A stretch of DNA of 64,000 nt from the NCBI GenBank assembly GCA_021809545.1, contig JAKAYL010000001.1, positions 101,710 through 165,709 on the forward strand. Reading direction: 5' to 3'. The notes beneath the pieces were generated by a model that was given only the letters and a program-made list of their open reading frames with translations, was not told the DNA's origin and searched no databases. The stretch's first letter is position 1. Each line of letters opens with the position of its first letter. This DNA is from Thermoplasmata archaeon. Lineage in GTDB: Archaea > Thermoplasmatota > Thermoplasmata > Lutacidiplasmatales > UBA184. Below are positions 2,391-54,298 of the stretch, one piece after another. Position numbers and translations under genes: made by a program.

Positions 2391-4004
2391 ATGCCTCCCG
2401 CTCCCCACTCCCCGGGGACCCCTTCCCCGAACCAAGGCCTTGACCGCGAGGCCGAGCATCTGCTCGCAGAACTCGTCCATCTCGACACCACCAACCTAGA
2501 GGATCCGGGCGGAGGGAGGATCGAGAAGCGCAACTATGCGAAGGCAGCGGAGGTGCTCCTCCGCCGGGCCCGCGACCTGGGGTTGGAGGCCCGTGTCTGG
2601 GATGCGCGGGAGGAGCTCAAGGACGGTTCCCATCGGTTCGCCGAGCCGCGGCCGAACGTCATCGTCGACCTGAACCGAGGGCAGAAGGACCGACTCCTGA
2701 TCGTCTCCCACTTCGACGTCGTTCCCGTCCCCGACGAGCAACTCACCCGGTGGAAGAGCCCCCCCCACGAGCTGACCCGGCGGGAGGACGGACGCTACTA
2801 CGGCCGCGGGGCGGCCGACGACCTCGGGAGCGGCGTGGTCCCGGGACTTCTGGCCCTCCGGGATCTGGCCCGGCGGGACGACCTCCGGGTGAACGTCCGC
2901 ATGATCGCCTGCTGCGACGAGGAGACCGGAGGGGCGGGCGGCATCGAGGCTCTCCGGGAACACGATGCGGAGCTTCCGTCCGGGAGCCCGGAGGCGATCC
3001 TCTCGGGGCTCATGACGGTCATCCCCGACGGCTCCCCCTACGTCGCCGCGGGTTCGAGCGGTGTCTCGTTCGTCGACGTTTCCCTTCCCCCCAAATCCCG
3101 CGTGACGGAGTTCCTGCGGGTGACGGAATCGCTGACCGAGTTCCGAACGGTCGCCGCCTCCTGGGTCTCCGCGCTTCCTTCGCCTCCCGAGCCCGAAGGC
3201 GAGCCCCCGAACGCCCACATCACCGGCCGGGCCACCCTGACCCTCACCCACCTCCGCGCCCCCGCTACCGGGGGGGCGGTTGCTCAACTGACGGCCCTGC
3301 GCTCCGCTTCGCTGGCCGCCAACCAGATCCCGGCCGTCGTGAAGCTCTCCTTCGCTGGTAAGACGTCGGCCCTGGGAAAACTGGAGTCCGTGCTCACCTC
3401 CCAGGTCCGGCTCCCGTTCCAACTGCGCATCCAGGCCTCGGAAGGGGAACTCGTTGCGGAGGTGGTGGGACGCTCCGGCCACGGGGGCTATCCTCATCGG
3501 GCCCACAACCCGGTCCCGGAGTCTGCCCGCCTTCTGCTCGAGGCCCTGCAGGCCGGGGCCCTGGAGGACGGACGGGTCGAGAGCGCCACGATGACGCTGG
3601 ACCTCCGTTCTCCCCCGGAGATGGAGGCTGAGCAGGCGCTGGAGATCTTCCGCAACTACTTCCGCCAGTTGGAGAACGAGGTCGCCGGGGTCAAGGCGGA
3701 CGTGCCTCCCGGGCGGGAGCGCTCGGGCTACTTCATCTCCCCGTCCGATCCCCGGGTCGAGAGCCTGCGCCGCATCTTCTCCGAGGTGAGCGGGAGGACC
3801 GTCGGCATCTACGGAGAATATGGAGGGACGGACGCCAGCGCCCTGCGCCGGATCACGACCCCGCGGGGAGACCCCATGCCGGTCGTGGTCGTCGGGGCGA
3901 TGGACGAGACGGCCCACATCCACGACGCGGAGGAGAGCCTGGACCCCCGCTACTTCCATGAGGTCATCCGGCTCCTGACCACGTGGGTCGAGCGCACTCC
4001 GTGA
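2391..4004 (+). CDS. M20-family metallopeptidase (ArgE/DapE/carboxypeptidase-like)
   Basis: 537-aa ORF with ATG start. Motifs HFDVVPV and GRGAADDLGSG are typical of peptidase M20. Confidence 0.75.
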   Translation: MPPAPHSPGTPSPNQGLDREAEHLLAELVHLDTTNLEDPGGGRIEKRNYAKAAEVLLRRARDLGLEARVWDAREELKDGSHRFAEPRPNVIVDLNRGQKDRLLIVSHFDVVPVPDEQLTRWKSPPHELTRREDGRYYGRGAADDLGSGVVPGLLALRDLARRDDLRVNVRMIACCDEETGGAGGIEALREHDAELPSGSPEAILSGLMTVIPDGSPYVAAGSSGVSFVDVSLPPKSRVTEFLRVTESLTEFRTVAASWVSALPSPPEPEGEPPNAHITGRATLTLTHLRAPATGGAVAQLTALRSASLAANQIPAVVKLSFAGKTSALGKLESVLTSQVRLPFQLRIQASEGELVAEVVGRSGHGGYPHRAHNPVPESARLLLEALQAGALEDGRVESATMTLDLRSPPEMEAEQALEIFRNYFRQLENEVAGVKADVPPGRERSGYFISPSDPRVESLRRIFSEVSGRTVGIYGEYGGTDASALRRITTPRGDPMPVVVVGAMDETAHIHDAEESLDPRYFHEVIRLLTTWVERTP

Positions 4005-5071
4005 CAGGGCCCGGCCGCCTCCCCGGCCACGCCTCGCCCGAGGGGACGGCCCGGTTCGCCGAACGGGCGGGCCGCGAGGACCGTACCGACCCGGGACATT
4101 TCCGCACCTTTCTCGATCTCACTTTCTCCAGCCTCGGGATGGGGACCTATCTCGGCCGGCCCGACGAGCCGACCGACCGGCGGGTGACCGCGGCGGCGGT
4201 CACCTCGGTCTCGAGCGGGGCGGTGAACGTCCTCGACTCCGCCATCAACTACCGGAACGGAAGGGGAGAGCAGGCGATCGGCCAGGCTCTGCGGAGCCTC
4301 CTCGAACTTGGTGTGGTGCGCAGGGACGAGCTCTTCGTCGCCACGAAGAACGGCTACACCGCCGACCGTGCGGCCCTCGCGCGCCTCGAGGATGAGGGGA
4401 AGATCCGGGGGGATGAGGTCGCCTCCGAGTGCAATTGCCTGAGCGTCCCCTTCCTCGCGGAGGAGCTCCCGAAGAGCCTCGCCAGTCTCGGGGTCGACAC
4501 CATCGACCTGCTCTACCTCCACAACGTGACGGACGAGCACCTTCCCCTCCTCGGGAAGGAGGCGTTCCTGGAGCGGCTCCGCTCCGCCTTCGACTTCCTG
4601 GAGCGTTGCCGCACCGAGGGAAAGATCCGATACTACGGGCTCGCCACCTGGGACACCCTGCGTCTCCCCGCCAACGCCTCCGGCTACTTGGCGCTCGAGG
4701 AGGCCGTCGGGGTCGCCCGAGCCGCCGGAGGAGCGGACCACGGATTCCGCTTCGTGCAATTCCCGTTCAATATGGCGATGCCCGAGGCGGCGCTCCGGAA
4801 GAACCAGCCCGTCGAGGGGGAGCTCCGGACCCTTTTCGACGCGGCCCGCACCCTGGGACTCGGGACCTTCTCTTCCGTCCCGCTCCTGCAGGGGAAGCTC
4901 CCGCCCCGGGAAGCGCTCCAGTTCGCCCGCGGCGCGCCGGGACACCTCGCACCGTTGGTAGGGCACAAGGACCCGCAGCATGTCACCCAGAACCTCGAGG
5001 TGGCCCGCGTGCCACCCCTCGAACCGGAGGAGTTCGAGGGACTCCTCCACCACCTCACTCAACCGGACTGA
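3983..5071 (+). CDS. aldo/keto reductase
   Basis: Signature ...LGMGTYLG... plus an AKR-like barrel sequence. GTG start at 3983 overlaps the M20 gene by 22 nt. There is no alternative in-frame start before the conserved N-terminus. Confidence 0.75.
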   Translation: MGRAHSVTGPGRLPGHASPEGTARFAERAGREDRTDPGHFRTFLDLTFSSLGMGTYLGRPDEPTDRRVTAAAVTSVSSGAVNVLDSAINYRNGRGEQAIGQALRSLLELGVVRRDELFVATKNGYTADRAALARLEDEGKIRGDEVASECNCLSVPFLAEELPKSLASLGVDTIDLLYLHNVTDEHLPLLGKEAFLERLRSAFDFLERCRTEGKIRYYGLATWDTLRLPANASGYLALEEAVGVARAAGGADHGFRFVQFPFNMAMPEAALRKNQPVEGELRTLFDAARTLGLGTFSSVPLLQGKLPPREALQFARGAPGHLAPLVGHKDPQHVTQNLEVARVPPLEPEEFEGLLHHLTQPD

Positions 5072-8022: not shown

Positions 8023-8982
8023 CTACGAGATTCGGCGTGACTTCACGAGGACTCGGAGGGCATTCAGGGTGATCATCTCATTCGGCCCATCGTGGCCCCA
8101 GTCGACCACTTCCGTATTGGCGGCCGAATGTCTTCCCCGATGCCAGTAACGGCCCTCGGAGCGCCAGGTACCATCGTTCGCGCGCTTGGATGCGACGAGG
8201 TCGAGAGCTTCCCGGGTCCTCGGGTCTCCCAGTTTGCCGGCTCGATCGAGCACCCTAAGGGCCTGAAGTATGTCGTAATGCCAGTAGAGGGGATAGTGGA
8301 GTTTCACCCATCGAGGGTTGACCACTGCCTCGCCATGGCAGGACCGGAACAGGCGATGCCTCAGAAAGAACTCGGCGGCCCGGTTGACAGCGTCCCGGGC
8401 CATGCGATCGTCTGTGGCCCGCAGATATTCGCTCAGCCCCCACAAGGTTGCGAGGCTCTCATAGAACGAAGAGTGGGATGCTTCTTTCGATGAGTCACAG
8501 TTCCACCCACCATCTGGCCATTGCCACTGCACGAGCGAGCTGGCGATTCGAATCACACGTGGGTCGTGAGCCATTCCCAGCCGGCAAAACACGCCCAACG
8601 GATTGCCCAACACGGAAGCGTGCAATCTCCATTTGCCGGCGATATTCAAGGGCCTCACCTTGCCATACGGAAGTCGAGAGAGGAGATACTTCGCCGCCTC
8701 GCGGGCGGCGCGGTTCCCCGAAGGCACCCCCAGCTCGACCGCTGAAACAAGACGCCATTGCGGACCGGCCCACTTCTTGTACCAGTGGACGCCAAACCCT
8801 CCGTCGGCCCGCTGGCCGGAGAGGAGCGACCGCAGGCGCGTTCCCCCAGGAATTTGTCGTTTTGTCTCAAGTACTTCGGTGACCCGCGTCGACAGGCCAA
8901 GGAGTTCGGTGAGGGCGAAGTACCGCACCGAGGGATCCTTCGAATTCAAGAGCCAGCGTACGCCGGGTTCGTCTCTATCCAT
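8023..8982 (-). CDS. QW-motif alpha/alpha-toroid protein (terpene-cyclase/prenyltransferase-repeat-like), paralog 1
   Basis: QW-like repeats (LVQWQWPDGGWNC, KRANDGTWRSEG). ATG at complement 8980-8982. Paralogous to 18259..19239. Confidence 0.6.
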   Translation of the reverse strand: MDRDEPGVRWLLNSKDPSVRYFALTELLGLSTRVTEVLETKRQIPGGTRLRSLLSGQRADGGFGVHWYKKWAGPQWRLVSAVELGVPSGNRAAREAAKYLLSRLPYGKVRPLNIAGKWRLHASVLGNPLGVFCRLGMAHDPRVIRIASSLVQWQWPDGGWNCDSSKEASHSSFYESLATLWGLSEYLRATDDRMARDAVNRAAEFFLRHRLFRSCHGEAVVNPRWVKLHYPLYWHYDILQALRVLDRAGKLGDPRTREALDLVASKRANDGTWRSEGRYWHRGRHSAANTEVVDWGHDGPNEMITLNALRVLVKSRRIS

Positions 8983-9162
8983 CAACGTTCATTCGCGGGC
9001 TGAGATGGGACTCATCCTCCAAACCCCGAACGGAGAGACCTGAAGAGGATCGGACCTGCCTTCCCTGAGTCCCAGGGCTTGCCATGGATCCACGCTTTCG
9101 ATCCAGCCCCCCGTCACCCAGGGAGACCATGCCGGATGCGCAGGGGTTGAGTCCTCGCGAGC

Positions 9163-16063: not shown

Positions 16064-16088
16064 CTCGACCGGGTCCCAACGAGAAAGG

Positions 16089-16098
16089 CTATTTCAAA
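16089..16098 (+). promoter_or_regulatory. TATA-like TATTTCAAAT, 30 nt upstream of the larB ATG
   Basis: AT-rich element in the 43-nt divergent gap between ACAD(-) and larB(+). Confidence 0.4.
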
Positions 16099-16124
16099 TC
16101 TAGTACGTGCCCCTACCCAGATTC

Positions 16125-16937
16125 ATGGGAGACCACCTAGAAGACCTGCTGCACGCGGTGCGCAAAGGGGACGTCAGCGTCGCGGACGCGGCCCGGGCCC
16201 TCTCCGAGGGACACCTCCCGGGAGGGAAGGGAGCACGGATCGACTTCCGCCGGATGGAGCGGACGGGGCTCCCGGAGATCATCCTGGCGGAGGGTAAGGA
16301 CCCGGAGGACCTGCGCAAGATCGTCGAGGAACTCTCGCGCGCCCACCAGGAAGTGATCATCTCCCGCGTGAGCGGGGCGAACCGGCGTCTCCTCGAAAGA
16401 CTCGCTTCCGCAGGAATCCCCCTCACCTTCCCTCCCCGGACCTCCCTGGCCCTGCTCAGGGGACAGACCATGACCCCCCTCCAGGGCCGGGTGGTCGCCG
16501 TCCTCACGGCCGGCACCGCAGACCTGTCGGTAGCCGAGGAAGCCGCGATCGTCCTCTCCTCGCTCGGGGCGGAAGTGGTCCGGGCCTACGACATCGGCGT
16601 CGCGGGGCTCCATCGCCTGACCCGGGCCCTGGCCGACCCTGCGGTTCAGAGGGCCCAGGTCTTCGTGGTCTGCGCAGGCCGCGAAGGGGCTCTCCCTACG
16701 GTCGTGGCCGGGCTCGTCGATCGGCCCATCGTCGCCATTCCCACCTCCGTAGGATATGGTCGGGGGGCCAAGGGGGAAGGGGCCCTCACCGCCATGCTCC
16801 AGTCCTGCGCACCCCTCGCCGTGGTGAACATCGACGGCGGAGTGCCGGCCGCGCTGGTCGCTGCGCAGATACTGCGCCATCTCCCCCCCGCAGGGAAGAA
16901 GCGGCGCGGGCCGACGAAGGCCCGGGCGGGCCGGTAG
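16125..16937 (+). CDS. larB: LarB-like nickel-pincer-cofactor biosynthesis carboxylase (PurE-like)
   Basis: N-terminal ...LLHAVRKGDVSVADAA...RIDFRRMERTGLPEIIL plus a PurE-like C-terminal half. ATG at 16125 lies 30 nt downstream of the TATA-like TATTTCAAAT. The track starts at a GTG at 16107. Confidence 0.65.
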   Translation: MGDHLEDLLHAVRKGDVSVADAARALSEGHLPGGKGARIDFRRMERTGLPEIILAEGKDPEDLRKIVEELSRAHQEVIISRVSGANRRLLERLASAGIPLTFPPRTSLALLRGQTMTPLQGRVVAVLTAGTADLSVAEEAAIVLSSLGAEVVRAYDIGVAGLHRLTRALADPAVQRAQVFVVCAGREGALPTVVAGLVDRPIVAIPTSVGYGRGAKGEGALTAMLQSCAPLAVVNIDGGVPAALVAAQILRHLPPAGKKRRGPTKARAGR

Positions 16938-17034
16938 CCTACCACCTTCCGAAGGACGGGCCCCGGAGGCCCGGAGTGTTACGCTCCAAAAAAACGTCAT
17001 AACCCTTATCTACTGCCGCCTCGTGGTCGGTGCG

Positions 17035-18135
17035 ATGGAGGCCGTCTCAGCGGAGGCCCCTCAGGTTGCCCTGTCCAAAGGGGAAGTCACGGGGGTCATC
17101 CTTCTCTATGTGGCCATCGGGATCTCCACCGCGGTGGCGATCGCCCTCTCGATCACCATCGGGAACGCCTACCCCATCTTGGCCGGGCTCGGGGTCGTCT
17201 CCTTCATCCTGGGGCTCCGGCACGGGTTCGATGCGGACCACATCGCTGCGATCGACAACACCACGCGCAAGCTCCTCAACCAGGGGGAGAAGCCGCTCAC
17301 GGTCGGGACCTGGTTCTCCCTGGGGCACTCCACGATCATCGCGGGCCTCTTGGTGGCCCTCGTGGTCGCCACGGATTTCATCGCGAACAACATCACGAAC
17401 TTCGCCGCCTACGGGGCGGTGATCGGCACGGTCATCTCCGGGGTCTTCCTCTGCATCATCGGCTTCATCAACCTCCTCATCGTCTTCGAACTGTACGGCA
17501 CCTTCCACGGGCTGCGCTCGGGAAAGCTCGACCAGGCCCGCCTGGAGGAGCAGCTCAACCAGCGGGGCTTCATGAACCGGATCTTCGGCGGGCTCTTCCG
17601 CTTCGTGAACAAGCCCTGGCAGATCTACCCCATCGGTATTCTCTTCGGCCTGGGCTTCGACACCGCGACGGAGGTCGCGTTCTTGGCCCTCGGGGTCACG
17701 GCCGCTACCGCGTTCAATCATCCGCCGCTCTGGACCATCATGATCCTCCCGTTCATGTTCACCTGCGGGATGGTCCTCTCCGACACGACGGACGGCGTCT
17801 CGATGCGCTATGCCTACGGGTGGGCGTTCCTCAACCCCATCCGGAAGATCTACTACAACCTCACGATCACGGTCATCTCGGTCCTCGTCGCCTTCCTCAT
17901 CGGGGGGGTGGAGTTCCTGCAGGTGATCTCTAGGGAACTCGGCTGGTCCGGTCCGGTCTGGGCGACCCTGCAGGGGATCTCCTTCACCCGACTGGGCCTC
18001 CTCATCATCGGAGTGTTCCTCGTGGCCTGGATCGTCGCCATGGCCGTGTACCGGCTCAAGGGATACGAGCGCACGGGCTTCGGGGCCGCCCCGTCCGGAC
18101 CCCCCCAGAAAGAGCCGGAACCAACGGTCACCTAG
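17035..18135 (+). CDS. NiCoT-family (HoxN/HupN/NixA) nickel/cobalt permease
   Basis: Signature GLRHGFDADHIAAIDNTTRKL with eight TM helices. ATG at 17035; the track has a GTG at 17023. Confidence 0.85.
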   Translation: MEAVSAEAPQVALSKGEVTGVILLYVAIGISTAVAIALSITIGNAYPILAGLGVVSFILGLRHGFDADHIAAIDNTTRKLLNQGEKPLTVGTWFSLGHSTIIAGLLVALVVATDFIANNITNFAAYGAVIGTVISGVFLCIIGFINLLIVFELYGTFHGLRSGKLDQARLEEQLNQRGFMNRIFGGLFRFVNKPWQIYPIGILFGLGFDTATEVAFLALGVTAATAFNHPPLWTIMILPFMFTCGMVLSDTTDGVSMRYAYGWAFLNPIRKIYYNLTITVISVLVAFLIGGVEFLQVISRELGWSGPVWATLQGISFTRLGLLIIGVFLVAWIVAMAVYRLKGYERTGFGAAPSGPPQKEPEPTVT

Positions 18136-18258
18136 AGCGTTCCGTCCCTTTTTCGGGAACCCCACGGCCTCGCCGGATCCTTTTCGCTGACGAGGGGAAA
18201 CGGCGTCCGCTCGGGTGGGCATCGATGCGCGTTCCTGACGTTCTGCTCTGTTCGTGCC

Positions 18259-19239
18259 CTACGGATCGGCGCCCGCTCTCTTCAGGACGGTGAGCGCCTT
18301 GAGCGTGATCCACTTGCTCGGCTTCCCGGGGGCCTCGATCTGGAGCGGCCGTTCCTCTTTCGCGTCCGAGGACCGGGTCCCCAGGTCGGGATGCAGCTTG
18401 TCCATGGCCCACGTCCCGTCGGGCCGGCGCTTCTCTCTCAGGACGTCCAGGGCGGGGCGCAGCCTGCGGTCGGCTCCGAAGCCCAGTTGGGTGAGGACAT
18501 CGAGTCCCACCAGGATGTCGTAATAGTAGTGGTTGGGATAGTGGAAACGGAACCACGGAGGATACCGGCGCCCCTCCTCGAAAAGCTTGCGTTCGAGGTA
18601 AAACTCGGCCCCTCGTACAATTGCTCGCTCCATGGCCGGAGAGCGTTTCGGCCGTGGGACGGACCCGAGGGCGGCCAGCGGCTCCCAGGCGTCGAGCGTC
18701 CCGGGAGTCCCCTGGGAACAGTTCCAGCCGCCGTCCTCCCGCTGATCCTCGAGGATCCAATCGAAGAGCTTCCGAATCCGGCGGTCGTCGCCGTATCCGA
18801 AGCGGGTCATCATCCGGGCCGTGTTCCCGACCATGCACATCTCCTCGTAGAAGAAATTGAAGGGGGAACTGAAACGAAGCTTGTAGTCGAACATCAGGTC
18901 GGCGATCCTACGGATCCTCGGATCGGCTTTGTCGAGGCCGAGGTCGGAGAGGACCAGCGCCCTCCACAACGTGGCGTGATACATCGGGCGCCAGAGGAAG
19001 GTGGTCCACTCCGCGAAATTCCGGGGCTCACGGCGCTCCCAGAATCCCTTGGGTCCCTGCTGCCGCAGCAGGTCCGCGGCCCACCCCATACGGCCTATCT
19101 GGGACCGGACCCGCCGAACCTCCGGGTCCGTTTCCTTGCGGTCGAGGAGATCCTTCAGCGCGAGATACCGGACGGCGGGTTGCTCCTTCTCGAGAAGCCA
19201 TCGGAGAGTGTCCCCAGCGTCTCCGGTCTCCGCAGGCAT
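18259..19239 (-). CDS. QW-motif alpha/alpha-toroid protein (terpene-cyclase/prenyltransferase-repeat-like), paralog 2
   Basis: Motifs ILEDQREDGGWNC and KRRPDGTWAMD. The N-terminus aligns with paralog 1 (LRWLLEKEQPAVRYLALKDLL vs VRWLLNSKDPSVRYFALTELL). ATG at complement 19237-19239. Confidence 0.6.
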   Translation of the reverse strand: MPAETGDAGDTLRWLLEKEQPAVRYLALKDLLDRKETDPEVRRVRSQIGRMGWAADLLRQQGPKGFWERREPRNFAEWTTFLWRPMYHATLWRALVLSDLGLDKADPRIRRIADLMFDYKLRFSSPFNFFYEEMCMVGNTARMMTRFGYGDDRRIRKLFDWILEDQREDGGWNCSQGTPGTLDAWEPLAALGSVPRPKRSPAMERAIVRGAEFYLERKLFEEGRRYPPWFRFHYPNHYYYDILVGLDVLTQLGFGADRRLRPALDVLREKRRPDGTWAMDKLHPDLGTRSSDAKEERPLQIEAPGKPSKWITLKALTVLKRAGADP

Positions 19240-19427
19240 AACATCTGTTGTAGAGGTCCTGGCGCTACTTAATCTGGCGTTGACGAAAACAGGACTCTGC
19301 CGGCGCTCTCCGGAGTGGGACCATCGCTCCCCAGGAGTCCCCAACGGAACAGGGTGGTGCTTGCGGTCCAGTGACTTGGGTGTGTAAGAGAGGGGGGCGT
19401 CCGCTTCCCAAACCGACTCCGCGATTG

Positions 19428-20522
19428 TCAGTGGAGGAATCCACCGATCCCGAGCCCTATGAGATAGGTCAGGGCGGCAGAGCCGAGTCCGATGACCACC
19501 ATCTCGAGACCCCCGCGTCCCAGGGAGGTAAGGGTGGAGAGCGAGCGGAATACACCGGTCGCGAACAGTACTATGGTACTCGCGGCCACGCTCACGATCA
19601 TGGACGGGAGCGGGGCCAGGAAGAAGAAGGGAAGGAGCGGTACGGCGCCGGCCAGTCCAAAGGCGACCCCGGTGATGAGCCCGAGCCGGACAGGGTTGCT
19701 GAAACTGCTCTCCCCCACCCCGTGGCGCTCGGCCAGGAGGACGCGGGCGAACTCCTCGTCGTCGGTGGCGATCCGGGCCACGATCGACTGTGCCTCAGCG
19801 CGCGAGAAACCTTTCTGGAGGTAGATCTCGGTGAGCTGGAGGACCTTGGTAGAACGATCCACCTCGATAGCATCCCGTTCCAAGGTGCGCAGCCCCGTGA
19901 ACATCTCCGCCTCCGCCTTGACGGAAACGTAGTTGGAGGCCGCCATCGAAATGGCCCCGGCAACGAGACCCGCGGTGCCGGCGATCAACACCTCGGGGTT
20001 GGAACTGGTGGCCCCGACCACCCCGGCGGAGAGCGCGAGGATGGTCCCGATCCCATCGTTCGCCCCCAGCACCGCGCTCCGGAGGGATCCCCCCTCACGG
20101 GCCGCGCTCCGCGCCTCGTTCGAGGTGTCGATCTCGTGGGAGAACTCGTCAGGGAGCAGCGTCTCGAAGATCCGGGTGAGCTCCGGATCCTTCCAAGCGG
20201 TCAGCTGGGCATGGTACTTCTTGATCCCGTCCACCTCGTCCTTGTGGACCGCGGAGAGGACGGTCGTCACCCCGAAAACGCGGGCCAGTCCGGCGAAGAT
20301 CCGGTGCTTCAGGATCATCCGTTCCGTCGGGGCCGGATACTGATGATGGTCCAGCACGCTCTTCCAGAGGGAGGCATGGCGGTCCTCGAAGGACGCCAGC
20401 ACCGAGAGGGTGTCCCTTCTCTTGGGTTTAGGATCGAGCGCCGCCAGGCGCTCGTAGAGCATCTTGCTGGAGACCTCCTCGAGGTAATTCCGTGCGACCT
20501 CCCTTAACACTCTCGCGTCCAT
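19428..20522 (-). CDS. ferritin-like (erythrin) and VIT1/CCC1 fusion membrane protein (MbfA-like iron transporter)
   Basis: The N-terminal domain has two E..H motifs (FEDRH, EFSHE). The C-terminal half has a VIT1-like TM region (GANDGIGTILALSAG...). ATG at complement 20520-20522 from sequence alignment. The track ORF extends upstream through implausible low-complexity sequence. Confidence 0.6.
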   Translation of the reverse strand: MDARVLREVARNYLEEVSSKMLYERLAALDPKPKRRDTLSVLASFEDRHASLWKSVLDHHQYPAPTERMILKHRIFAGLARVFGVTTVLSAVHKDEVDGIKKYHAQLTAWKDPELTRIFETLLPDEFSHEIDTSNEARSAAREGGSLRSAVLGANDGIGTILALSAGVVGATSSNPEVLIAGTAGLVAGAISMAASNYVSVKAEAEMFTGLRTLERDAIEVDRSTKVLQLTEIYLQKGFSRAEAQSIVARIATDDEEFARVLLAERHGVGESSFSNPVRLGLITGVAFGLAGAVPLLPFFFLAPLPSMIVSVAASTIVLFATGVFRSLSTLTSLGRGGLEMVVIGLGSAALTYLIGLGIGGFLH

Positions 20523-20631
20523 GGCCAGTGAGAGGAGATGCAAGGCGGTGGTATTAGCCCCTTCGATGCCTGCGGGACCTTGGTTGGAAACGTAAGAACA
20601 GCTATTTGCCTCAAAGTACCTTGTACGGAAC

Positions 20632-21516
20632 ATGCTCCGAGAGTACCTGGTGGAATGGTTCGAGCCGTCCCTCTTCCTGGCCCTCCTGATCGGGGTCGTG
20701 GGGGTGGCGGCTGCGGCCGGCATGGGACGATGGAACCTGCTCGATGCGGGGCTCGCGGTCGGAGGCGCCTTCATGGCACAGGCCTCGGTCAATCTCATCA
20801 ACGACTACCACGACTTCACCTCCGGCATCGACCGGGAGAGCGTGAAGACCCGGTTCAGCGGGGGAAGCGCCCTGGTGGCGTCGGGCGCCGTCCCCCACCG
20901 GGACGTCCTCTATCTCGGGATCGTTTCGGCCGCCGCTGCGGGGATCGTCGGGATCTACCTGGCGATAGCCGTCACTTGGCTGCTGCTCGCGCTCATGGGC
21001 CTGGGCGGGATTGCGATCTTCCTTTACACCAAGTACGTCACCCACTTTGCCTTCCTTGCGGAGCCCTTCGTCATGCTCTCGTTCGCCGCGGTCGCGGTGG
21101 GGACCTATGTGGCGGCCCATGGATCCTTCGCGGGCATGGTCCCCGCCCTCTTCGCGCTCCTCCCCGCGGGTATGCTGGGCGGCCTCGCGCTCCTCGTGAA
21201 CGAAGTCCCCGACGCAGAGGTGGACGGACGGCACGGACGCCGCCACGCCGTCGTCCTGCTCCGGGACCTCCGGAAAGTGACCCTCTACTTCGCGTTGCTC
21301 GAGATCCTGATCTACGGCATCGTGCTCGCCGGTGTGCTCGCGAGGGCGCTTTCCCCCTTCTTCGTGCTCGTCCTCCTCGCCCTACCGTTCACGCTCTACG
21401 TGGGCCGCGGCATCCTCAGATTCCGGGATGCCCCGAGCTACGAGAGGATCATGACCGTGAACGTCGGGGGTACGCTGCTCTTCCTGGGAGCCCTGATTGC
21501 TTCGTACAGTCTGTGA
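20632..21516 (+). CDS. UbiA-family prenyltransferase
   Basis: Motif NLINDYHDFTSGID (the NxxxDxxxD Asp-rich motif) and nine TM helices. Confidence 0.8.
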   Translation: MLREYLVEWFEPSLFLALLIGVVGVAAAAGMGRWNLLDAGLAVGGAFMAQASVNLINDYHDFTSGIDRESVKTRFSGGSALVASGAVPHRDVLYLGIVSAAAAGIVGIYLAIAVTWLLLALMGLGGIAIFLYTKYVTHFAFLAEPFVMLSFAAVAVGTYVAAHGSFAGMVPALFALLPAGMLGGLALLVNEVPDAEVDGRHGRRHAVVLLRDLRKVTLYFALLEILIYGIVLAGVLARALSPFFVLVLLALPFTLYVGRGILRFRDAPSYERIMTVNVGGTLLFLGALIASYSL

Positions 21517-21523
21517 GGAAGGG

Positions 21524-22567
21524 ATGAAGGCGGTCGGCTTCGAGAGGTTTGGGGAGCCGGAAGTGCTCCGTGCCCTGGACCTGCCAGACCCCGTCGCGGG
21601 TCCGGGAAAGGTCGTTCTGCGGCTCCGGTACGCCTCGGTCAATCATCTGGACATCCTGGTACGGCAGGGACTCGGAACTGTGGGACTCCCCCTCCCTCAC
21701 GTTCCCGGGACGGACATCGTCGGCACGGTAGAAACCGTGGGGGAGGGAGTGGAAGGTGTTACGGAGGGGGAGACCTTCGTAGCCAACACCGTGGTGGGCT
21801 GCGGGCAGTGCGACCACTGCCGTCGGGGGAACGACGCTGACTGCTCCCACTGGCGTACCCTCGGCATGCATTTCTGGGGTTCGTACGCGGAGAAGGTCGT
21901 GGTCCCGGCTCAGGGGCTCCTCCCCGCGCCCCCTGCGCTCTCCCTCCCCGAACTGGCCTGTCTCCCCCTTTCCCTCTCGGTCGCCTGGCGGGCCCTGCAT
22001 ACCCTGGGGGACGCGAGACCGGGGCAGAAGGTGCTCCTCTGGGGAGCCTCCGGAAACGTGGGGCTTGTGGCCCTGCAGGTCGCCCGGGCGCTCGGTCTCG
22101 AGGTGTTCGCAGTGACAAGGGATCCCAAGAAGGTCTGGCTCCTCCGGGAGATGGGGTCGGACCACGTGGTGGTCTACGGGGAGGACCCGGGCCAGGTCGC
22201 GGAAGAGGTGCACGCCCTCACGCACGGCTCCGGGGTCGACCTCGTTCTCGAGGCGATGGGAGGTTCCCTCCACGGGTCCGTGCGGGCTCTTCGAGACGGG
22301 GGAAAGGTCCTCCTGTTCGGTTCGCTCGCCGGTCCGGAGGCACAGCTGGACGTGGTCGGGCTCTATCGGAAGCGGGGTCAGGTGCTCGGGCTCCACAACG
22401 CGAACCGCGGGGAGCTCCAGGAAGCCCTGGACTTCTACTCCCTTCACCATCTTCACCCCAAGATCTCAAGGACCCTCGACGTCCGCGAGGCGGCGGCAGC
22501 CCACCGCGCGCTGGAGCGTTCGGAGGAGTTCGGTAAGATCGTGCTCGAGCACCGGTGGGGCGAATGA
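21524..22567 (+). CDS. zinc-type alcohol dehydrogenase / quinone oxidoreductase (MDR superfamily)
   Basis: N-terminus MKAVGFERFGEPEVL, a GxGxxG-like Rossmann region, and the typical C-terminus GKIVL. Confidence 0.75.
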   Translation: MKAVGFERFGEPEVLRALDLPDPVAGPGKVVLRLRYASVNHLDILVRQGLGTVGLPLPHVPGTDIVGTVETVGEGVEGVTEGETFVANTVVGCGQCDHCRRGNDADCSHWRTLGMHFWGSYAEKVVVPAQGLLPAPPALSLPELACLPLSLSVAWRALHTLGDARPGQKVLLWGASGNVGLVALQVARALGLEVFAVTRDPKKVWLLREMGSDHVVVYGEDPGQVAEEVHALTHGSGVDLVLEAMGGSLHGSVRALRDGGKVLLFGSLAGPEAQLDVVGLYRKRGQVLGLHNANRGELQEALDFYSLHHLHPKISRTLDVREAAAAHRALERSEEFGKIVLEHRWGE

Positions 22568-23178
22568 AGCGGTCGGCCTCTGAGATCCTCTTCCTCGGCC
22601 TTCCCCTCCTCCTCTGGCCCCTCTCCTTCATTGTCCTGAGGAGCTACTTCATCTATGCGATGGTCGGTTCTACCGGCCTCCTCGCGCTTCTTTCCCTTCG
22701 TCTGCACCCCGAACGGATCCACTGGGTCCGCACCCGGACCCCGGTTCTCGCGGTGCTCGGGGGCGCGCTCGGCGCCTTCGTGCTCTACGGCCTCTTCGTG
22801 CTCGGCAACATCGGGACCGCGGATCTCGGCCTGAGCTCCTACGTGAGCAACGTCTACGCCATGATCTACCAGGCGAGCAGCCGGGAGATCACCATCGTGC
22901 TCCTCGCCCTGATCGGCATTTTCGAAGAGATCTACTGGAGGGGCGCCCTCCAAGGCACCGTCGAGGGGCACCCCGGCCGCTTCCAGAAATATCCTTGGGT
23001 CCTCTCCACGGCGTACTACACGTTCGTCCACATATCGACCCTGAACCCCATCCTTGTCGGAGCGGCCATGGTGGTGGGTCTGGTCACCAGCCTCGTGGCC
23101 GATCGCGTGGGAATCTCGGGGTCGATCGTGACCCACCTCCTCTGGATCGAGGCGATCGTCGTCTTCTTCCCCGTATAA
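22564..23178 (+). CDS. CPBP-family (CAAX) intramembrane metalloprotease
   Basis: Motif EEIYWRGAL plus a downstream H motif in a TM context. The ATG overlaps the upstream stop (ATGA). Confidence 0.7.
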   Translation: MKRSASEILFLGLPLLLWPLSFIVLRSYFIYAMVGSTGLLALLSLRLHPERIHWVRTRTPVLAVLGGALGAFVLYGLFVLGNIGTADLGLSSYVSNVYAMIYQASSREITIVLLALIGIFEEIYWRGALQGTVEGHPGRFQKYPWVLSTAYYTFVHISTLNPILVGAAMVVGLVTSLVADRVGISGSIVTHLLWIEAIVVFFPV

Positions 23179-23278
23179 CGAGTCCCTCACGTTCGGTTGT
23201 TCCCGTCGGGGGAAGGGCGAGGAAAAGAGGGTTGCCGGGGCGGCGCAGCTTAAGTGTGCTGGGCCCCATGGGTCCCCG

Positions 23279-23734
23279 ATGCCTTCCCGCGTGGTTCGTC
23301 TTGGGGTCTCGCTGGAGCCCGAGCTCCTTCAGGCGCTCGATCGATGGATCAGCTCCCGCAACTCGGCCAGCCGCTCGGAGGCCCTTCGATCCCTCATCCG
23401 GAAGGAACTGTCCGATACGGTGCTGGGCGACCCTTCTGCGGACGCCGTGGCAACGGTCATGATCCTCTACCGGCACACCGCCTACGGGGTGCAGCGACGG
23501 CTCACCTCCGCGCAGCACCGCTGGGGTGAGCACATCCGCTCCGCCACTCACTTTCACCTCCAAGGGGATGCTTGCCTGGAAGTCTTGGTCCTCGCTGGGA
23601 AACATTCCGAGCTCGTGCGGGCGGCCGAAGACCTCCGCGGCGTGAAGGGGGTGCTCCACGGGGACTACATGCTGAGCACCCCGAAGGTGGCCGGGGGAAA
23701 GACGGGACACCGGCACCCGCACGCCCCCCACTGA
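23279..23734 (+). CDS. nikR: NikR-type nickel-responsive regulator (RHH plus ACT-like metal-binding domain)
   Basis: N-terminal ribbon-helix-helix (VRLGVSLEPELLQALDRWI). The C-terminal domain has conserved His/Cys (HTAYG...HxH...C). Size is about 150 aa. Confidence 0.7.
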   Translation: MPSRVVRLGVSLEPELLQALDRWISSRNSASRSEALRSLIRKELSDTVLGDPSADAVATVMILYRHTAYGVQRRLTSAQHRWGEHIRSATHFHLQGDACLEVLVLAGKHSELVRAAEDLRGVKGVLHGDYMLSTPKVAGGKTGHRHPHAPH

Positions 23735-36236: not shown

Positions 36237-37181
36237 TTACGTAACAGGAGGGGTAGTTTCCTTTGTCAAGGAACTGCTTTCCTTATTGGAGAGGGCCTTC
36301 GCTTCGCGGAAGGCCTTGAGGATGCTGGTGCCCCCGATGAACCCCACGACCAGAACCACCATGACGAAGGCGATCCCGAGGAAGTCGAGGTTCGGGACTG
36401 GGTTTCCCGTGGAGATACCCACCGCGTCGATCTGGGGGAGAAGGATGATCACCGCCCCGAGGACGGCGAAGGCGAGGCCCCCCCAATAGAGGGTTCGGCC
36501 CGCCGTCTTCTGTCCGATGAACTTGACCTGCTCGAGGGTCATCCGGCCCCGCCGGATGAGGTTCGCGAAGATCGCCCCCGTGAGGATCTGCATGAGCATC
36601 GTGCCGATCCCGAACATGAGCCCGACGAGAGGGGCGAGGAAGACCGATCCCACCTGGGGAGCGAGGAAGAAGACGAGGATGGTCGCGAATCCCCCGAAGC
36701 CCCAGCCGGCGACGAAACCGTGGCCGAGGGCCATCCGAAGAGAGGTAGGACGGGGATGGACCTCCTCCGTCGGAAGACGCTGAGCCTCGTCGGTGTGGTG
36801 CCCCTTGCCCCCAAAGAGCACATCGAAGGGCAGGTGGAGGTACCGCCCCTTCAGGATGTAGGAACCGGCCATGAACATGACGACCCCGACCAGTACGTAG
36901 ACCGGGCCATCGAGATTGTAGACGAGATAGATCGAGGCGAGACCGAGGAATCCGAGCGTGGTCAGTATGGCCCGCTGGATGGTGAACCCGGTCGAGAAGA
37001 CGAACCCCGCGCGCATCCCGCCCTTCGTGCTGTAGCTGCCGACGGAGTAGCTGAAGGTGATCGGCCAGGTGTGTTCGTCCGGGGTGCCCCCGTGAAGTAT
37101 CCCCAGCACGAGCGCGAGGCCGAGGATCTCCCACAGCGACAGACCGGTCGGGGGGCTGAACAGGAGGTTGAGGAACGACAT
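36237..37181 (-). CDS. putative metal-ion transporter membrane protein (His-rich loops), co-oriented with the DtxR-family regulator
   Basis: Polytopic. Motifs HGGTPDEH and GKGHHTDE. Lies immediately downstream of a DtxR-like gene on the same strand. Confidence 0.45.
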   Translation of the reverse strand: MSFLNLLFSPPTGLSLWEILGLALVLGILHGGTPDEHTWPITFSYSVGSYSTKGGMRAGFVFSTGFTIQRAILTTLGFLGLASIYLVYNLDGPVYVLVGVVMFMAGSYILKGRYLHLPFDVLFGGKGHHTDEAQRLPTEEVHPRPTSLRMALGHGFVAGWGFGGFATILVFFLAPQVGSVFLAPLVGLMFGIGTMLMQILTGAIFANLIRRGRMTLEQVKFIGQKTAGRTLYWGGLAFAVLGAVIILLPQIDAVGISTGNPVPNLDFLGIAFVMVVLVVGFIGGTSILKAFREAKALSNKESSSLTKETTPPVT

Positions 37182-37193
37182 GGGCCTGCTTCT

Positions 37194-37613
37194 TTACCGT
37201 CCCTTGCAGGGAGGAATGGGTTGTCCGTGAGGGCAGCGGACTGGGTGTCCCTTCCCCTCGCAGACCTGTTCGATGGTGCGGTGCGACAAGGCGAGGTCGA
37301 CCTCGCGGGCCGCCTCGCAGGTCTCTTCGGGGGAGAGACCCAGTTCCTGGAAGAGACTCTCCGCCACACGGTGGTGCCGCTGGTACTCGACGATCGTGGC
37401 GCGGCCGCTTTCCGTGAGGCGGGACTTCCCCCGGTGCCGCTCCACGAGCTTGAGGTCCTCCAGGGCCCCCACGTGGTCCAAAGCGGACGGGGAGGAGACT
37501 TTCAGGCGGGCGGCGATCGCCTTGAGAGGAGCACCCCGGCCGTCCTTGTCCGCCTCGACGATCGAGCGGAGAGTGTCGACCTGGCGCCGGGTGAGCCTCT
37601 GCAGCAACTCCAT
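37194..37613 (-). CDS. DtxR/MntR-family metal-dependent transcriptional regulator
   Basis: Winged-helix N-terminus with a metal-binding helix (ESLFQELGLSPEETCEAAREVDLALSH). A TTAATAAAC TATA-like element lies about 20 nt upstream. Confidence 0.7.
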   Translation of the reverse strand: MELLQRLTRRQVDTLRSIVEADKDGRGAPLKAIAARLKVSSPSALDHVGALEDLKLVERHRGKSRLTESGRATIVEYQRHHRVAESLFQELGLSPEETCEAAREVDLALSHRTIEQVCEGKGHPVRCPHGQPIPPCKGR

Positions 37614-38111
37614 ACCCCCCTAAGGCGGGGCCATGTTTATTAAGTACACCCTAATTATTTGGTTCAAACAAAGATGCGGGAAGCCGAAAGGAGTCAGGTG
37701 CCTACCGAGCCAAGGTGAACCATCGAACGGGGAAGCCTCGACTTTCAACCGACCAGCGTAGAAATGCAGGAATCCCGAGGCAAATTCTCAGCGGCGGCGG
37801 TCACCCATTTGTGCCGATCCCCACTTCCTTCTCGGTAGCTTTCGACCCGGTATCCCTAGTTGCGCTCGTCCCCATCCTTGAACTCTCTCTGTACGGTTCA
37901 CAAGAAACACAAGAACTGTCGAGTATCCTACTCATAACACAGATACCCGAATTCCCGATGGAACGTTCCAAGCCGAGCACTCTTGACCGATTCAATTCCA
38001 CCGATGATTGCCACACTGTAAATCAACCAGTTCCTTACCAGAAAAGGGGAACAAGACCGCTAGCGTTGGGTACTGCAGCGACTCCGCGCGAACACTGGCC
38101 CGATACAGTTC

Positions 38112-38120
38112 TTTAAAATA
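38112..38120 (+). promoter_or_regulatory. TATA TTTAAAATA 35 nt upstream of the low-GC-island gene
   Basis: Seen directly. Confidence 0.45.
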
Positions 38121-38154
38121 TGCACCGTCCTTTACTACTTGCTTTGTAACGGAA

Positions 38155-39102
38155 ATGAGTTGCAAGAGTGCATCCAATGGTAGGCGAACGGCAATCAATC
38201 AAAACGCCAGACAAGCTTTGGTGGTAATCCTATCGATAGCCGTAGCCGTGCCCCTGAATGGCTGGCTGCTCTACGAGGAGTTCTGGGGTCATCACGTCGA
38301 ATGTTCGGTTGGGAATGCTGTGGCCAACAGCGAGATGGTGACTCCCTACGCCATGGCGAATCGCCCCTATCTGGGTGGGAACCAGACGATGAACATCAGC
38401 TACCTGGCGGGCCCGGACTACACGTTCGATTCAGGTGGCTTGCGAGTGACCACGCCGTTGTTTTCACCGATGTCACGAACCAATTATGCCTATCAGTCCG
38501 TTGTGGCTTGGGGTAATCTTTCCTTCACGAATGAGTCTTACATTTGGACCGTTGCAGTTTACTGGGACTTCAACTGGACGATCTACTCTGTGAAGAACGT
38601 CAGTGTGTTCACCTCGAACCCTAGCGAGCCGTGCACGCAAGCATACGTGGCCATGGTAGCCAATGAGGGAGCATTCATGACTAGCGGAGGAAGTCAGGTT
38701 GTCGGTTCCCTTCCGTTGCAGAACTCCACCACGGATGCCAGTGAGGGGCACTATCTCCCCTCCAACAATCTGAGCGTCACGGGAGACTGGCCAAGCATTT
38801 GGTACAACAACAGTTTCTATGGGTCCAATCGCCCCACCATTGACACTTGCAATCAAAGCAACGATACAGTGATCAAGTCGTACGGTTGGGTCTACCTCCC
38901 TATCGCGGTCACCTTGAGGGCAGGGGGGCACAACGTAACGGCATATGGTTCGCTGGGGTGGAGCGGGGGGCCGAGCCCCTCTTCGAGCAACCCTGCGACC
39001 ATGACTTACGTCTTTCCTGCCCACGGTGGCATCTGGAAAGTCTATTCCATTCCGGGATCAGGGAATCCTGGAGCCTTGGCGTTCCAGTACTATTCGTGTT
39101 GA
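38155..39102 (+). CDS. secreted/anchored protein rich in Asn-x-Ser/Thr sequons, inside a low-GC island
   Basis: ATG at 38155 with TTTAAAATA 35 nt upstream. N-terminal hydrophobic anchor. At least 14 N-x-S/T sequons. Local GC is about 50% against about 65% for the window. Confidence 0.45.
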   Translation: MSCKSASNGRRTAINQNARQALVVILSIAVAVPLNGWLLYEEFWGHHVECSVGNAVANSEMVTPYAMANRPYLGGNQTMNISYLAGPDYTFDSGGLRVTTPLFSPMSRTNYAYQSVVAWGNLSFTNESYIWTVAVYWDFNWTIYSVKNVSVFTSNPSEPCTQAYVAMVANEGAFMTSGGSQVVGSLPLQNSTTDASEGHYLPSNNLSVTGDWPSIWYNNSFYGSNRPTIDTCNQSNDTVIKSYGWVYLPIAVTLRAGGHNVTAYGSLGWSGGPSPSSSNPATMTYVFPAHGGIWKVYSIPGSGNPGALAFQYYSC

Positions 39103-39158
39103 ACTGTCGGAAAGACGGCGCCTCCGAGCGAGCCTAGGTTCCGAGCTACAGGTTTCAC

Positions 39159-39172
39159 GCCGAAAAATCGGC
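39159..39172 (-). terminator. hairpin GCCGATTTTTCGGC (minus strand) immediately after the DUF169 stop
   Basis: 4-bp GC stem around a T5 run on the transcribed strand. Confidence 0.3.
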
Positions 39173-39186
39173 GGCCGCGGACCAGA

Positions 39187-39918: not shown

Positions 39919-40018
39919 CACCCGCTACGGCCCAGAAACAAGGCGCAGCCTATCTACCCGTTCTGTAGGAAGGGGCGCTACAGTCCCAGCCCCTCCGACT
40001 TGGTTCCTGGGGCGGTTC

Positions 40019-51313: not shown

Positions 51314-51605
51314 ACCGGGACCCTCCCTATCCGCGGGGTCCTTGGCCTATCCCCGGAGCAATCCATAGACCAGAACATCGACTTACCGGGATCCGAGCCG
51401 GGCCTCTCCCCGGAGGCGCCCCTCCCGCGGGAGGGTCGGGGGGGGGGTCTGGGACTGACCGTGGATGCGCCAAAAGAGGTGGGCCCCGGACGCGACGGCC
51501 CGAGGAATGCCCGCGCGGTCTGCCGGCCGGAAGGGCACTTCCACGGCTCTTCCCCTACAGCACCGATATGAGGCGAACCGGCTTGCGCTGCAACGAGCGT
51601 GGCCC

Positions 51606-54294: not shown

Positions 54295-54298
54295 GAGC

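Follow-up and report, generated by a model that had tools for sequence, protein, structure and literature searches.

We found that larB, nicT, and nikR, which lie within 8 kb of one another in the 64-kb stretch of archaeal DNA analyzed here (the window), probably belong to two independent and ordinary units that happen to stand side by side: larB, with a promoter presumably shared with acd, and a nicT importer gene predicted to be repressed by NikR. The juxtaposition of larB and nicT arose recently and by chance, each of the three genes is a typical member of a known family, and no new mechanism is revealed. The original prediction had joined LarB, a NiCoT permease, and NikR into one nickel module. 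The gene identities stand, but comparison does not support the grouping: larB has no NikR box, larB and nicT are adjacent in this species only, relatives usually carry nicT-nikR by itself, and the conserved partner of larB is acd-etfBA. The synteny of relatives, taken together with a NikR box found at nicT only, argues that two units were juxtaposed here. The features discussed are collected in Table 1.

Table 1. Genes and sequence elements discussed in the text, in window coordinates
Feature	Position	Strand	Remarks
Candidate NphT-type client, aldo-keto reductase (AKR)	3983-5071		very divergent; PF00248 80 bits over N-terminal half
acd/larB intergenic region	16064..16124		61 bp, between divergent acd (start 16063, minus) and larB
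TATA-like element GCTATTTCAAAT	16088-16099		single AT-rich element, flanked by purine-rich BRE-like sequence
larB	ORF 16107-16937; likely ATG 16125, giving 16125..16937	+	270 aa; start as in public assemblies
Predicted NikR-type operator GTGTTAC-N13-GTCATAAC	16976..17003	+	28 bp; right half abuts TATA box
nicT TATA-like element CCTTATCTAC	17004..17013	+	~27 nt before ATG 17035
nicT, nicT/hoxN-type NiCoT secondary nickel (cobalt) permease	17023/17035-18135	+	366 aa; PF03824
Intervening block, outside the nickel system	18259..23178		Pfam
Toroid paralog	18259-19344	minus	Pfam
VIT1-family transporter	19428-20522/20801	minus	Pfam
UbiA prenyltransferase	20632-21516	plus	Pfam
MDR/quinone-oxidoreductase-like dehydrogenase	21497-22567	plus	Pfam
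CPBP protease	22555-23178	plus	Pfam
nikR, nickel-responsive ribbon-helix-helix repressor	23279..23734	+	151 aa; NF003381, PF08753

Results

The larB product and its promoter

The source of the DNA is a soil archaeon, and larB is predicted to code for the P2CMN synthase, a carboxylase/hydrolase of NaAD, that begins nickel-pincer cofactor synthesis. Judged by a curated HMM, a full-length match to a solved enzyme, and the catalytic Cys, the product of 16125..16937 is LarB, in agreement with the original prediction of a LarB-type PurE-like enzyme. The suggested LarB HMM check was run with the NCBIfam equivalog NF033503 and gave 225.5 bits against a cutoff of 175. A genuine PurE with purine genes nearby had been named as the outcome that would speak against LarB; instead, the PurE model TIGR01162 scored 47 bits against a cutoff of 149.6, and Pfam identified no purine biosynthesis genes among the window genes scanned or on the flanking public contig. 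The product aligned with L. plantarum LarB (PDB 7mj0) over chain residues 6-243 of 256 (E 6e-43), an alignment in which the full-length LarB architecture of N-terminal region and PurE-like domain is present. Most LarBs of relatives within the order are missing the N-terminal ~30 residues.

Cys228 (codon 16806-16808) aligns with Cys221 of the L. plantarum enzyme, and this catalytic Cys is invariant across 81 aligned LarBs. Rankin et al. are said to have found, in 2021, that Cys221 of L. plantarum LarB forms a transient cysteinyl-pyridine adduct. We also checked positions at least 90% conserved among 64 LarBs, 51 of which are encoded beside LarC and 48 beside LarE. The window LarB retains every one of them (D39, R42, K57, D128, H158, R159, E180, C221, N229, and D231), and this conservation extends to 17 of 17 Thermoplasmata sequences. 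Ala132 sits at the position of L. plantarum Ser127, which is Ser or Ala in both LarB groups compared; an S127A variant of LarB is active and in preparative use (PMC13524815).

The short region between acd and larB is presumed to be a compact bidirectional promoter common to both genes. The GCTATA(T/A) element within it is kept at the same place in 16 related loci. No NikR-type box was found in 16064..16124 or in the 16 related larB promoters. larB stands head-to-head with acd-etfBA in 16 of 16 related Thermoplasmata loci; over these loci, LarB identity is 50-58% and the other neighbors change, those that remain having housekeeping roles (RPA-like, pyrF, pdxS, nnr). Across this Thermoplasmata order, which is probably Lutacidiplasmatales, larB keeps the divergent acd-etfBA operon as its partner.

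The nicT permease and its promoter

By its sequence, the nicT product is a member of the NiCoT family, not a NicT equivalog. The original prediction had named a high-affinity Ni/Co permease carrying the family signature; membership of the family was borne out by PF03824 (NicO), which matched at 319.6 bits over profile positions 3-286 of 287, and by the RHGFDADHI core (residues 62-70, nt 17218-17244) of the signature GLRHGFDADHIAAIDN. The NiCoT signature is of the HX4DH, (R/K)HAxDADHI type and lies in the second transmembrane segment. The GFDTATE motif of the family is found at nt 17653-17673. TIGR00802 scored 331.2 against a cutoff of 333.05, short by 1.9 bits, and the NicT equivalog NF052500 scored 375.5, below its cutoff of 450.

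Orthologous nicT promoters carry TTAAAT, TTATAT, or TTATGA at the position of the TATA-like element. Since this element precedes the ATG at 17035 by ~27 nt, the nicT transcript is probably leaderless or nearly so, with the transcription start placed by standard archaeal TATA-to-start spacing. No oligo-T terminator occurs between larB and nicT, and therefore read-through from larB may occur. An Rfam scan of the whole window returned neither a cobalamin riboswitch nor any other match.

nikR and the predicted operator

A NikR regulator ~5 kb from the permease had also been proposed, and the gap is indeed 5.1 kb. The product exceeds the cutoffs of the NikR equivalog NF003381 (109.8 vs 105) and of NikR_C PF08753 (75.5 vs 22 bits), and RHH_1 scored 19.7, slightly below its cutoff of 20.5. 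All four high-affinity nickel ligands, His80, His91, His93, and Cys99, are present; they align to H88, H99, H101, and C107 of H. pylori NikR (2ca9), which we take to be the nickel ligands of that protein.

A scan for NikR-type palindromes had been suggested for two promoter regions. It was productive for 16938-17034, which holds a conserved NikR-type box at 16976-17003, and not for 16064-16124. That this box is a NikR operator merged with an archaeal TATA box is a well-supported prediction. Its left half equals the half-site GTGTTAC of the published NikR consensus, GTGTTAC-[N13/14]-GTAACAC (PMC545781). The strict palindrome GTGTTAC-N13/14-GTAACAC has no match in the window, and the box itself is poorly palindromic: GACATAA, which forms its right half, agrees with the reverse complement of GTATGAC at 5 of 7 positions. 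GTATGAC, the enterobacterial type, forms the left half in some relatives. The right half could partly reflect BRE constraints.

The 28-bp position weight matrix (PWM), with the consensus GTRTKAC-N13-GACATAAC adjoining the TATA box, was built from 50 sites, of which the window's own is one, and gave the box a score of 31.4. Elsewhere the window has no such site: the next best score, 8.6, comes from the opposite strand of this one. The maximum in 20 shuffles was 13.3. Scored with a 46-column PWM, 57 of 78 nicT upstream regions, that of the window among them, carry a box above 25 at the corresponding position, in 50 distinct sequences. Its presence tracks an adjacent nikR (52/3 versus 3/13). No NikR box was found at the larB, nikR, or ubiA promoters. 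The box at 16976-17003 was recognized only through comparison with orthologous promoters.

Gene order in relatives

The order of the three genes recurs on 24 independently assembled contigs and is therefore not an assembly artefact. Among the loci compared, larB adjoins nicT in this species only: nicT is adjacent to larB in 0 of 15 related larB loci with room downstream, and larB lies upstream of nicT in 0 of 46 related loci with >1.2 kb upstream, although the related loci are not phylogenetically independent, and such counts therefore overstate the number of independent observations. Neither larC nor larE was found within 10 kb of larB in the 16 related Thermoplasmata loci. In L010 and L016, which represent two other genera, nicT-nikR lies ~7.4 kb downstream of larB. 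In two sister genera, larB is separated from nicT-nikR by seven housekeeping genes; these are missing in this species, so that larB now abuts nicT. nikR is directly beside nicT in 55 of 67 related nicT loci; it is directly downstream in 50 of the 59 with room and divergent in 5. The neighbors of nicT-nikR in relatives vary (pirin, PHO4, ArgG, ABC-2 transporter) and include no Lar gene. Bathyarchaeia clusters have palindromic GTAATAC-N14-GTATTAC boxes in the interval from larB to cbiM/nikM, and nikR was detected in some of these loci. It is therefore a known and repeated pattern that a lar gene stands beside a nickel transporter under NikR control.

The 5.1-kb block lies between nicT and nikR in this species only. 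In 80 related loci, the 10 kb around nicT-nikR contain none of its genes, and in 16 relatives none of them adjoins larB. The toroid paralog does directly follow the permease, as had been pointed out, but it belongs to this block and not to the nickel system.

Search for other Lar proteins and nickel enzymes

The original prediction had seen no LarA, LarC, or LarE in the window. This holds: tblastn with archaeal LarC and LarE seeds gave no match to either in the window, Pfam scans of all plausible window genes found none of the three, and precomputed Pfam annotation of the public contig found none in the 7.6 kb to the left and 8.7 kb to the right, thus covering ~8 kb past either end. One step along the 335-kb public contig on each side brought up no Lar gene. 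When a 5.8-billion-protein set was searched with a profile built from 25 archaeal LarCs, the matches listed were all Bathyarchaeia-like. KEGG lar identifiers are absent from the supplements of the Lutacidiplasmatales paper. A profile search of 50%-identity representatives, followed by selection of high-GC candidates and a second homolog search, led to two contigs (L167 and L168) in which larC-larE-cysteine desulfurase adjoins rpoH-rpoB. These contigs encode a Bathyarchaeia-type LarB (46% identity), and we rejected them as a LarC source from the same organism because they belong to another archaeal lineage.

The window AKR, a candidate client, is 11 kb distant from larB, and in relatives the two genes are not found together. 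The NphT structure 9YEB was not among its PDB sequence matches. H144 and K200 of NphT, an NPMN-dependent aldo-keto reductase, form the His/Lys motif that binds the nickel-pincer cofactor. By motif position only, the window AKR appears to have Trp/Thr and Ser/Val in their place.

Discussion

How might two juxtaposed units operate in this organism? larB would encode a functional LarB and be transcribed from the 61-bp bidirectional promoter common to acd-etfBA, and nicT, driven by a separate promoter, would encode a nickel importer of the NiCoT family. Nickel-loaded NikR is predicted to bind the 28-bp box abutting the TATA box, where it would block TBP/TFB recruitment and so turn uptake off once the nickel supply suffices. 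The nicT and nikR genes of relatives would form one autoregulated operon; here the operon appears to have been split by the unrelated 5.1-kb block, and nikR, displaced by 5.1 kb, would have lost the promoter that it shared with nicT. We infer that larC, larE, and a client enzyme are encoded elsewhere in the genome.

Could larB, nicT, and nikR nevertheless be one module, in which import is coupled or co-regulated with nickel-pincer cofactor synthesis for some client enzyme? We consider this unlikely. The order of the three genes on 24 independent contigs of this species, the distance of less than 8 kb between larB and nicT-nikR in L010 and L016, and the lack of a visible terminator between larB and nicT would all fit such coupling, as would the Bathyarchaeia larBCE clusters that adjoin nikMNQO-type transporters, some with nikR and several with NikR-type boxes. 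The L. plantarum lar operon, too, adjoins larR(MN)QO. However, larB has no NikR box here or in 16 related promoters, nicT has its own TATA box and predicted operator, and the adjacency is absent in 15 of 15 larB loci and 46 of 46 nicT loci with room. Chances are about even that nicT-nikR mainly serves other nickel enzymes and that the proximity of larB is functionally meaningless. Ni-SOD (K00518) would be one such enzyme and is a reported Lutacidiplasmatales trait (PMC9287336); moreover, nicT-nikR occurs without larB in all related nicT loci compared, next to varying neighbors with no Lar gene among them. Against this, a search for sodN by its HCDxPCG motif was negative in the window and in all loci retrieved. 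Such a role would agree with two separate units and need not compete with them.

The two proteins might also differ in function from what their families suggest. It is quite doubtful that Thermoplasmata LarB is an orphan that has a role other than NPN synthesis and is functionally tied to the acyl-CoA dehydrogenase/ETF operon (acd-etfBA) on the other side of its promoter region. The divergent acd-etfBA/larB arrangement in 16 of 16 loci, with no larC/larE within 10 kb, and the missing N-terminus of most of these LarBs are consistent with an orphan, but the enzyme keeps every LarB-invariant residue, the catalytic Cys among them, the HMM score exceeds the equivalog cutoff, and the remaining neighbors are housekeeping genes, which suggests simple lineage synteny. 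In addition, lar genes often lie scattered, and larBCE occurs without larA in ~15% of the genomes surveyed (PMC11796402). It is conceivable, if very unlikely, that the order's LarB is a stand-alone enzyme with an alternative role or pathway, kept head-to-head with the acd/ETF operon and never seen with LarC/LarE in the loci compared. Should complete genomes prove devoid of LarC and LarE, a non-nickel-pincer role could fall to P2CMN or to some carboxylated pyridinium nucleotide related to it, or non-orthologous sulfur and nickel insertion enzymes could feed a non-LarA client. For the permease, import of cobalt instead of nickel seems most improbable. The NiCoT family includes cobalt-preferring transporters, and this member scores below the NicT equivalog cutoff and slightly under that of TIGR00802. 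However, the context favors nickel as the probable substrate: the promoter carries a NikR-type box, nikR immediately adjoins nicT in 55 of 67 relatives, and the window has no cobalamin riboswitch.

The window adds one more archaeal order with LarB but no nearby LarA. The predicted NikR operator, which recurs in ~57 nicT promoters from Thermoplasmata of soil and peat, could help to define the nickel regulon of these uncultured archaea.

Comparison with known systems

The lar locus of L. plantarum comprises larA-larB-larC1C2-larD-larE, larR, and the larMNQO nickel transporter. In the window, too, LarB is encoded beside a putative nickel importer, and it shares its catalytic Cys and full-length architecture with the L. 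plantarum enzyme. Unlike that locus, the window has no larA, larC, or larE nearby, its importer is a secondary NiCoT permease and not an ECF/ABC system, its regulator is NikR and not LarR, and its larB has a presumed promoter of its own, common to acd-etfBA. We also compared archaeal larB-larC-larE clusters from Bathyarchaeia, Heimdallarchaeia, and Methanocella (L014, L044, L048, L053, L059, L065, L069, and L082). Their LarBs are 40-47% identical to that of the window, a nickel transporter (there nikMNQO-type, of the CbiMNQO family) is likewise adjacent, and the NikR-type boxes share the 7-N13/14-7 layout. In contrast, larC (51 of 64) and larE (48 of 64) lie beside larB there and are absent from the window, and their box is a good palindrome, GTAATAC-N14-GTATTAC, whereas the window box is asymmetric.

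The predicted operator resembles those of E. coli nikABCDE (GTATGAT-N13/14-ATCATAC) and of delta-proteobacterial nik operons (GTGTTAC-N13/14-GTAACAC) in its length of 27-28 bp, with two 7-bp halves and a 13-14 bp spacer, and its left half is identical to the delta-proteobacterial half-site. It differs from both in its right half, GACATAA(C), which is a degenerate half-site, and in being fused to an archaeal BRE/TATA, whereas theirs overlap a sigma-70 promoter. The permease shares its Pfam family, the HX4DH signature, and GFDTATE with HoxN of Cupriavidus, NixA of H. pylori, and NicT of M. tuberculosis, although it scores under the NicT equivalog cutoff. Close parallels are also seen in the nicT-nikR operons of related soil and peat Thermoplasmata (L083-L149), with NiCoT identities of 52-64%, NikR identities of 59-72%, and the same promoter box and TATA. 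Whereas nicT and nikR are joined there, an unrelated block sets them 5.1 kb apart in the window, and larB stands directly upstream of nicT.

One nickel module or two conserved units

The original prediction joined a LarB-like carboxylase, a NiCoT permease and a NikR-type regulator into a single nickel module. The gene identities and the larB-nicT adjacency hold, but related loci keep larB with the acyl-CoA dehydrogenase/ETF operon acd-etfBA and nicT with nikR, and no NikR-type box lies at larB. A single module is only partly supported. The three genes are themselves ordinary members of known families.

The larB product reaches 225.5 bits with the NCBIfam LarB equivalog model (cutoff 175) and aligns end to end with the L. 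plantarum LarB structure 7mj0 (E 6e-43, chain residues 6-243). The refuting alternative, a true PurE accompanied by purine genes, was rejected: the PurE model gives 47 bits only, against a cutoff of 149.6. We aligned 81 LarBs (17 from Thermoplasmata, the window included, and 64 others) with the L. plantarum sequence and examined positions at least 90% conserved in the 64 non-Thermoplasmata LarBs, which mostly adjoin LarC or LarE. Near-invariant motif and active-site residues are retained in 17/17 Thermoplasmata LarBs, the window's among them, including D39, R42, K57, D128, H158, R159, E180, the catalytic Cys C221 (L. plantarum numbering), N229 and D231. Judged by these residues, the window LarB looks functional. 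At the Ser127 position it has Ala, and both residues occur there naturally in the alignment; S127A LarB shifts synthesis towards the dicarboxylated product and for that reason is the preparative form (PMC13524815). Most Thermoplasmata LarBs of the order (L003-L031, L072) start ~12 residues ahead of the conserved D39 motif, and an N-terminal helical segment of ~30 residues, absent from most LarBs of the order, is present in those of the window, Bathyarchaeia and L. plantarum.

The permease and regulator identities also stand. NikR scores above its model cutoff and conserves H80, H91, H93 and C99, the positions aligning with the four H. pylori NikR nickel ligands.

Features discussed in the text (window positions unless a locus is named)
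Feature	Position	Strand	Remarks
AKR	3983-5071		divergent; 11 kb from larB
First toroid paralog	8023-8985
larB	ORF 16107-16937; ATG 16125	+	270 aa in public assembly gene calls
nicT, NiCoT permease	17035-18135	+	PF03824, 319.6 bits; RHGFDADHI signature
Second toroid paralog	18259-19344
VIT1, longest ORF	19428-20801		457 aa
UbiA	20632-21516
MDR dehydrogenase	21497-22567		ordinary GxGxxG nucleotide-binding motif, read from translation
nikR	23279-23734	+	NF003381, 109.8 (cutoff 105)
Membrane protein, 314 aa	36237-37181	-	HGGTPDEH motif; unannotated, no Pfam match
DtxR-type iron-dependent repressor	37194-37613	-
ORF, 364 aa	38008-39102		many N-x-S/T sequons; no family match
DUF169	39187-39921	-
NRAMP transporter	40019-41251	-
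Tetrapyrrole cluster	51465-55360 and 61737-64000
GTAATAC-N14-GTATTAC palindromes	L014 11687-11714; L053 11045-11072; L059 10744-10771; L065 11050-11077

A LarB locus scan, one genome per species, gave 80 loci (16 Thermoplasmata, 64 others), the closest from Thermoplasmata MAGs of acid soils. All 16 Thermoplasmata loci (LarB identity 50-58%) have larB divergent from acd-etfB-etfA, and none has larC or larE inside 10 kb of larB or nicT adjoining it. In the window the divergent genes have a common 61-bp intergenic region with a single TATA-like element (16088-16099), an arrangement kept throughout the order. By this gene order, larB belongs to a conserved unit distinct from nicT-nikR. Two loci, L010 and L016, carry a nicT-nikR pair ~7.4 kb downstream of larB, with seven housekeeping genes between (coiled-coil, FKBP-like and RPA-like proteins, pyrF, a GT4 glycosyltransferase, pdxS and others). 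None of the seven is in the window, where larB abuts nicT because the separating genes of sister genera are absent.

A NiCoT scan of metagenomes found 80 loci, mainly from peat and soil (65-73% G+C), and the 67 at >=52% identity were analysed. Of the 59 with downstream room, 50 have nikR directly 3' of nicT in the same orientation and five have it divergent; larB is upstream of nicT in 0/46 of those having >1.2 kb upstream. The toroid, VIT1, UbiA, dehydrogenase and CPBP block lying between nicT and nikR in the window occurs in none of the 67. Gene order and promoter sequence indicate that nicT and nikR are one autoregulated operon in relatives, and that in the window nikR has been shifted 5.1 kb from nicT by an unrelated block, with the NikR-type box no longer in front of nikR. 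Among these relatives (L083-L149), ~25 loci carry a pirin (bicupin) gene directly upstream of the box and nicT and co-oriented with nicT (e.g. L095 2611-3486). In 21-29 of the loci the gene after nikR, also co-oriented, encodes a conserved ~365-aa protein without sequence matches in Pfam or the PDB (e.g. L089 7993-9084); it may be the operon's third gene. The window has neither the pirin gene nor this one.

It is plausible that nicT supplies nickel for the cofactor, a functional link to larB with parallels in Bathyarchaeia and L. plantarum, in which lar genes adjoin a nickel transporter; no sign of shared regulation was found here. No oligo-T terminator was found after larB, and read-through into nicT is therefore possible. 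The permease may just as well supply nickel to Ni-SOD or other nickel enzymes. Ni-SOD is reported as a trait of Lutacidiplasmatales (PMC9287336). No Ni-SOD motif was found in the window.

Pathway genes absent from the window, and client enzymes

The predicted lack of LarA, LarC and LarE in the window was confirmed. Archaeal LarC and LarE seeds had no tblastn match there, Pfam scans of all plausible window genes found none of the three, and neither did precomputed Pfam labels from 7.6 kb left to 8.7 kb right of the window on the public contig DAHXSH010000008.1 (335 kb), which contains it at ~257,914-321,913. Elsewhere, larB, larC and larE without larA occur in ~15% of surveyed genomes (PMC11796402). 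Of the 64 non-Thermoplasmata LarB loci (Bathyarchaeia, Heimdallarchaeia, Dehalococcoidia and others), 51 have larC and 48 have larE next to larB, and a CbiMNQO-type transporter and/or nikR is near larB in a minority (CbiM 11, nikR ~8). Another archaeal lineage of high G+C has larC-larE-cysteine desulfurase immediately ahead of rpoH-rpoB-rpoA (L167 6904-13103, L168 10001-13222), which suggests sulfur supply for LarE by the desulfurase; L167 also has larB and an Ldh/Mdh-family dehydrogenase 2.3 kb from these genes.

Clients other than LarA are known (PMC13524815), among them an NPAD-dependent ornithine cyclodeaminase and NphT, one of the NPMN-dependent aldo-keto reductases. The window AKR seems, by motif position, to lack the His/Lys pair of NphT, and in relatives this AKR is not found alongside larB. 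An Rfam scan of the window had no match, and therefore there is no cobalamin riboswitch.

Other features of the window

At 66% G+C, the window carries genes for archaeal L15e and Hel308. A second metal-homeostasis cluster occupies 36237-41251 on the minus strand. Inside this interval, 37700-39150 is low in G+C (0.59 vs ~0.66 elsewhere in the window) and contains the sequon-rich 364-aa ORF; the stretch could be of foreign origin or encode a surface protein. The toroid paralogs are 30% identical, with weak squalene-hopene-cyclase-like matches; orthologs of the first (74-75% identity; L083 5017-5973, L094 1754-2710) lie 4-5 kb upstream of nicT-nikR on these two metagenome contigs from relatives. 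The longest VIT1 ORF overlaps the UbiA start by 170 nt, and public gene calls give a 364-aa VIT1 without the overlap. The tetrapyrrole cluster (hemC, TP_methylase (SUMT), hemE, a radical SAM protein, ferrochelatase and a HemY-like oxidase) places protoporphyrin-route and siroheme-type-route genes together in an archaeon.

A conserved NikR-type box upstream of nicT

A search for NikR-type sites, proposed for both promoters, found none at larB (16064-16124) and a conserved box upstream of nicT (16938-17034). There, GTGTTACGCTCCAAAAAAACGTCATAAC at 16976-17003 is directly followed by CCTTATCTAC and, ~27 nt on, by the ATG at 17035. The 28-bp layout GTRTKAC-N13-GACATAAC plus TTAAAT, TTATAT or TTATGA recurs in 57/78 nicT upstream regions, the window counted (50 distinct sequences), and box scores over the 78 are clearly bimodal. 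A matrix built from the 50 distinct sites, the window's own among them, finds exactly one site in the window, at 31.4; the next score, 8.6, is the same site on the opposite strand, and the maximum over 20 shuffles is 13.3. It finds no box at larB, nikR or the ubiA operon in the window, and related larB promoters have none. nikR is adjacent in 52/55 loci with the box vs 3/16 without, although the loci are related and the counts not independent. In lar clusters of Bathyarchaeia, the stretch from larB to cbiM/nikM holds near-perfect palindromes with a NikR-type layout (table).

We infer NikR binding, transcription starts and the metal specificity of nicT from sequence; nicT is read as a nickel importer, and Ni-NikR is predicted to occlude its promoter. 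Comparing the promoters had a useful by-product, a conserved NikR box in archaea. Published half-sites are GTGTTAC-[N13/14]-GTAACAC in delta-proteobacteria and GTATGAT-[N13/14]-ATCATAC in enterobacteria (PMC545781), and some related nicT boxes have GTATGAC as the left half. The left half of the window box is identical to the delta-proteobacterial left half-site, whereas its right half, unlike those of the published palindromic operators, is a degenerate half-site abutting the TATA box.
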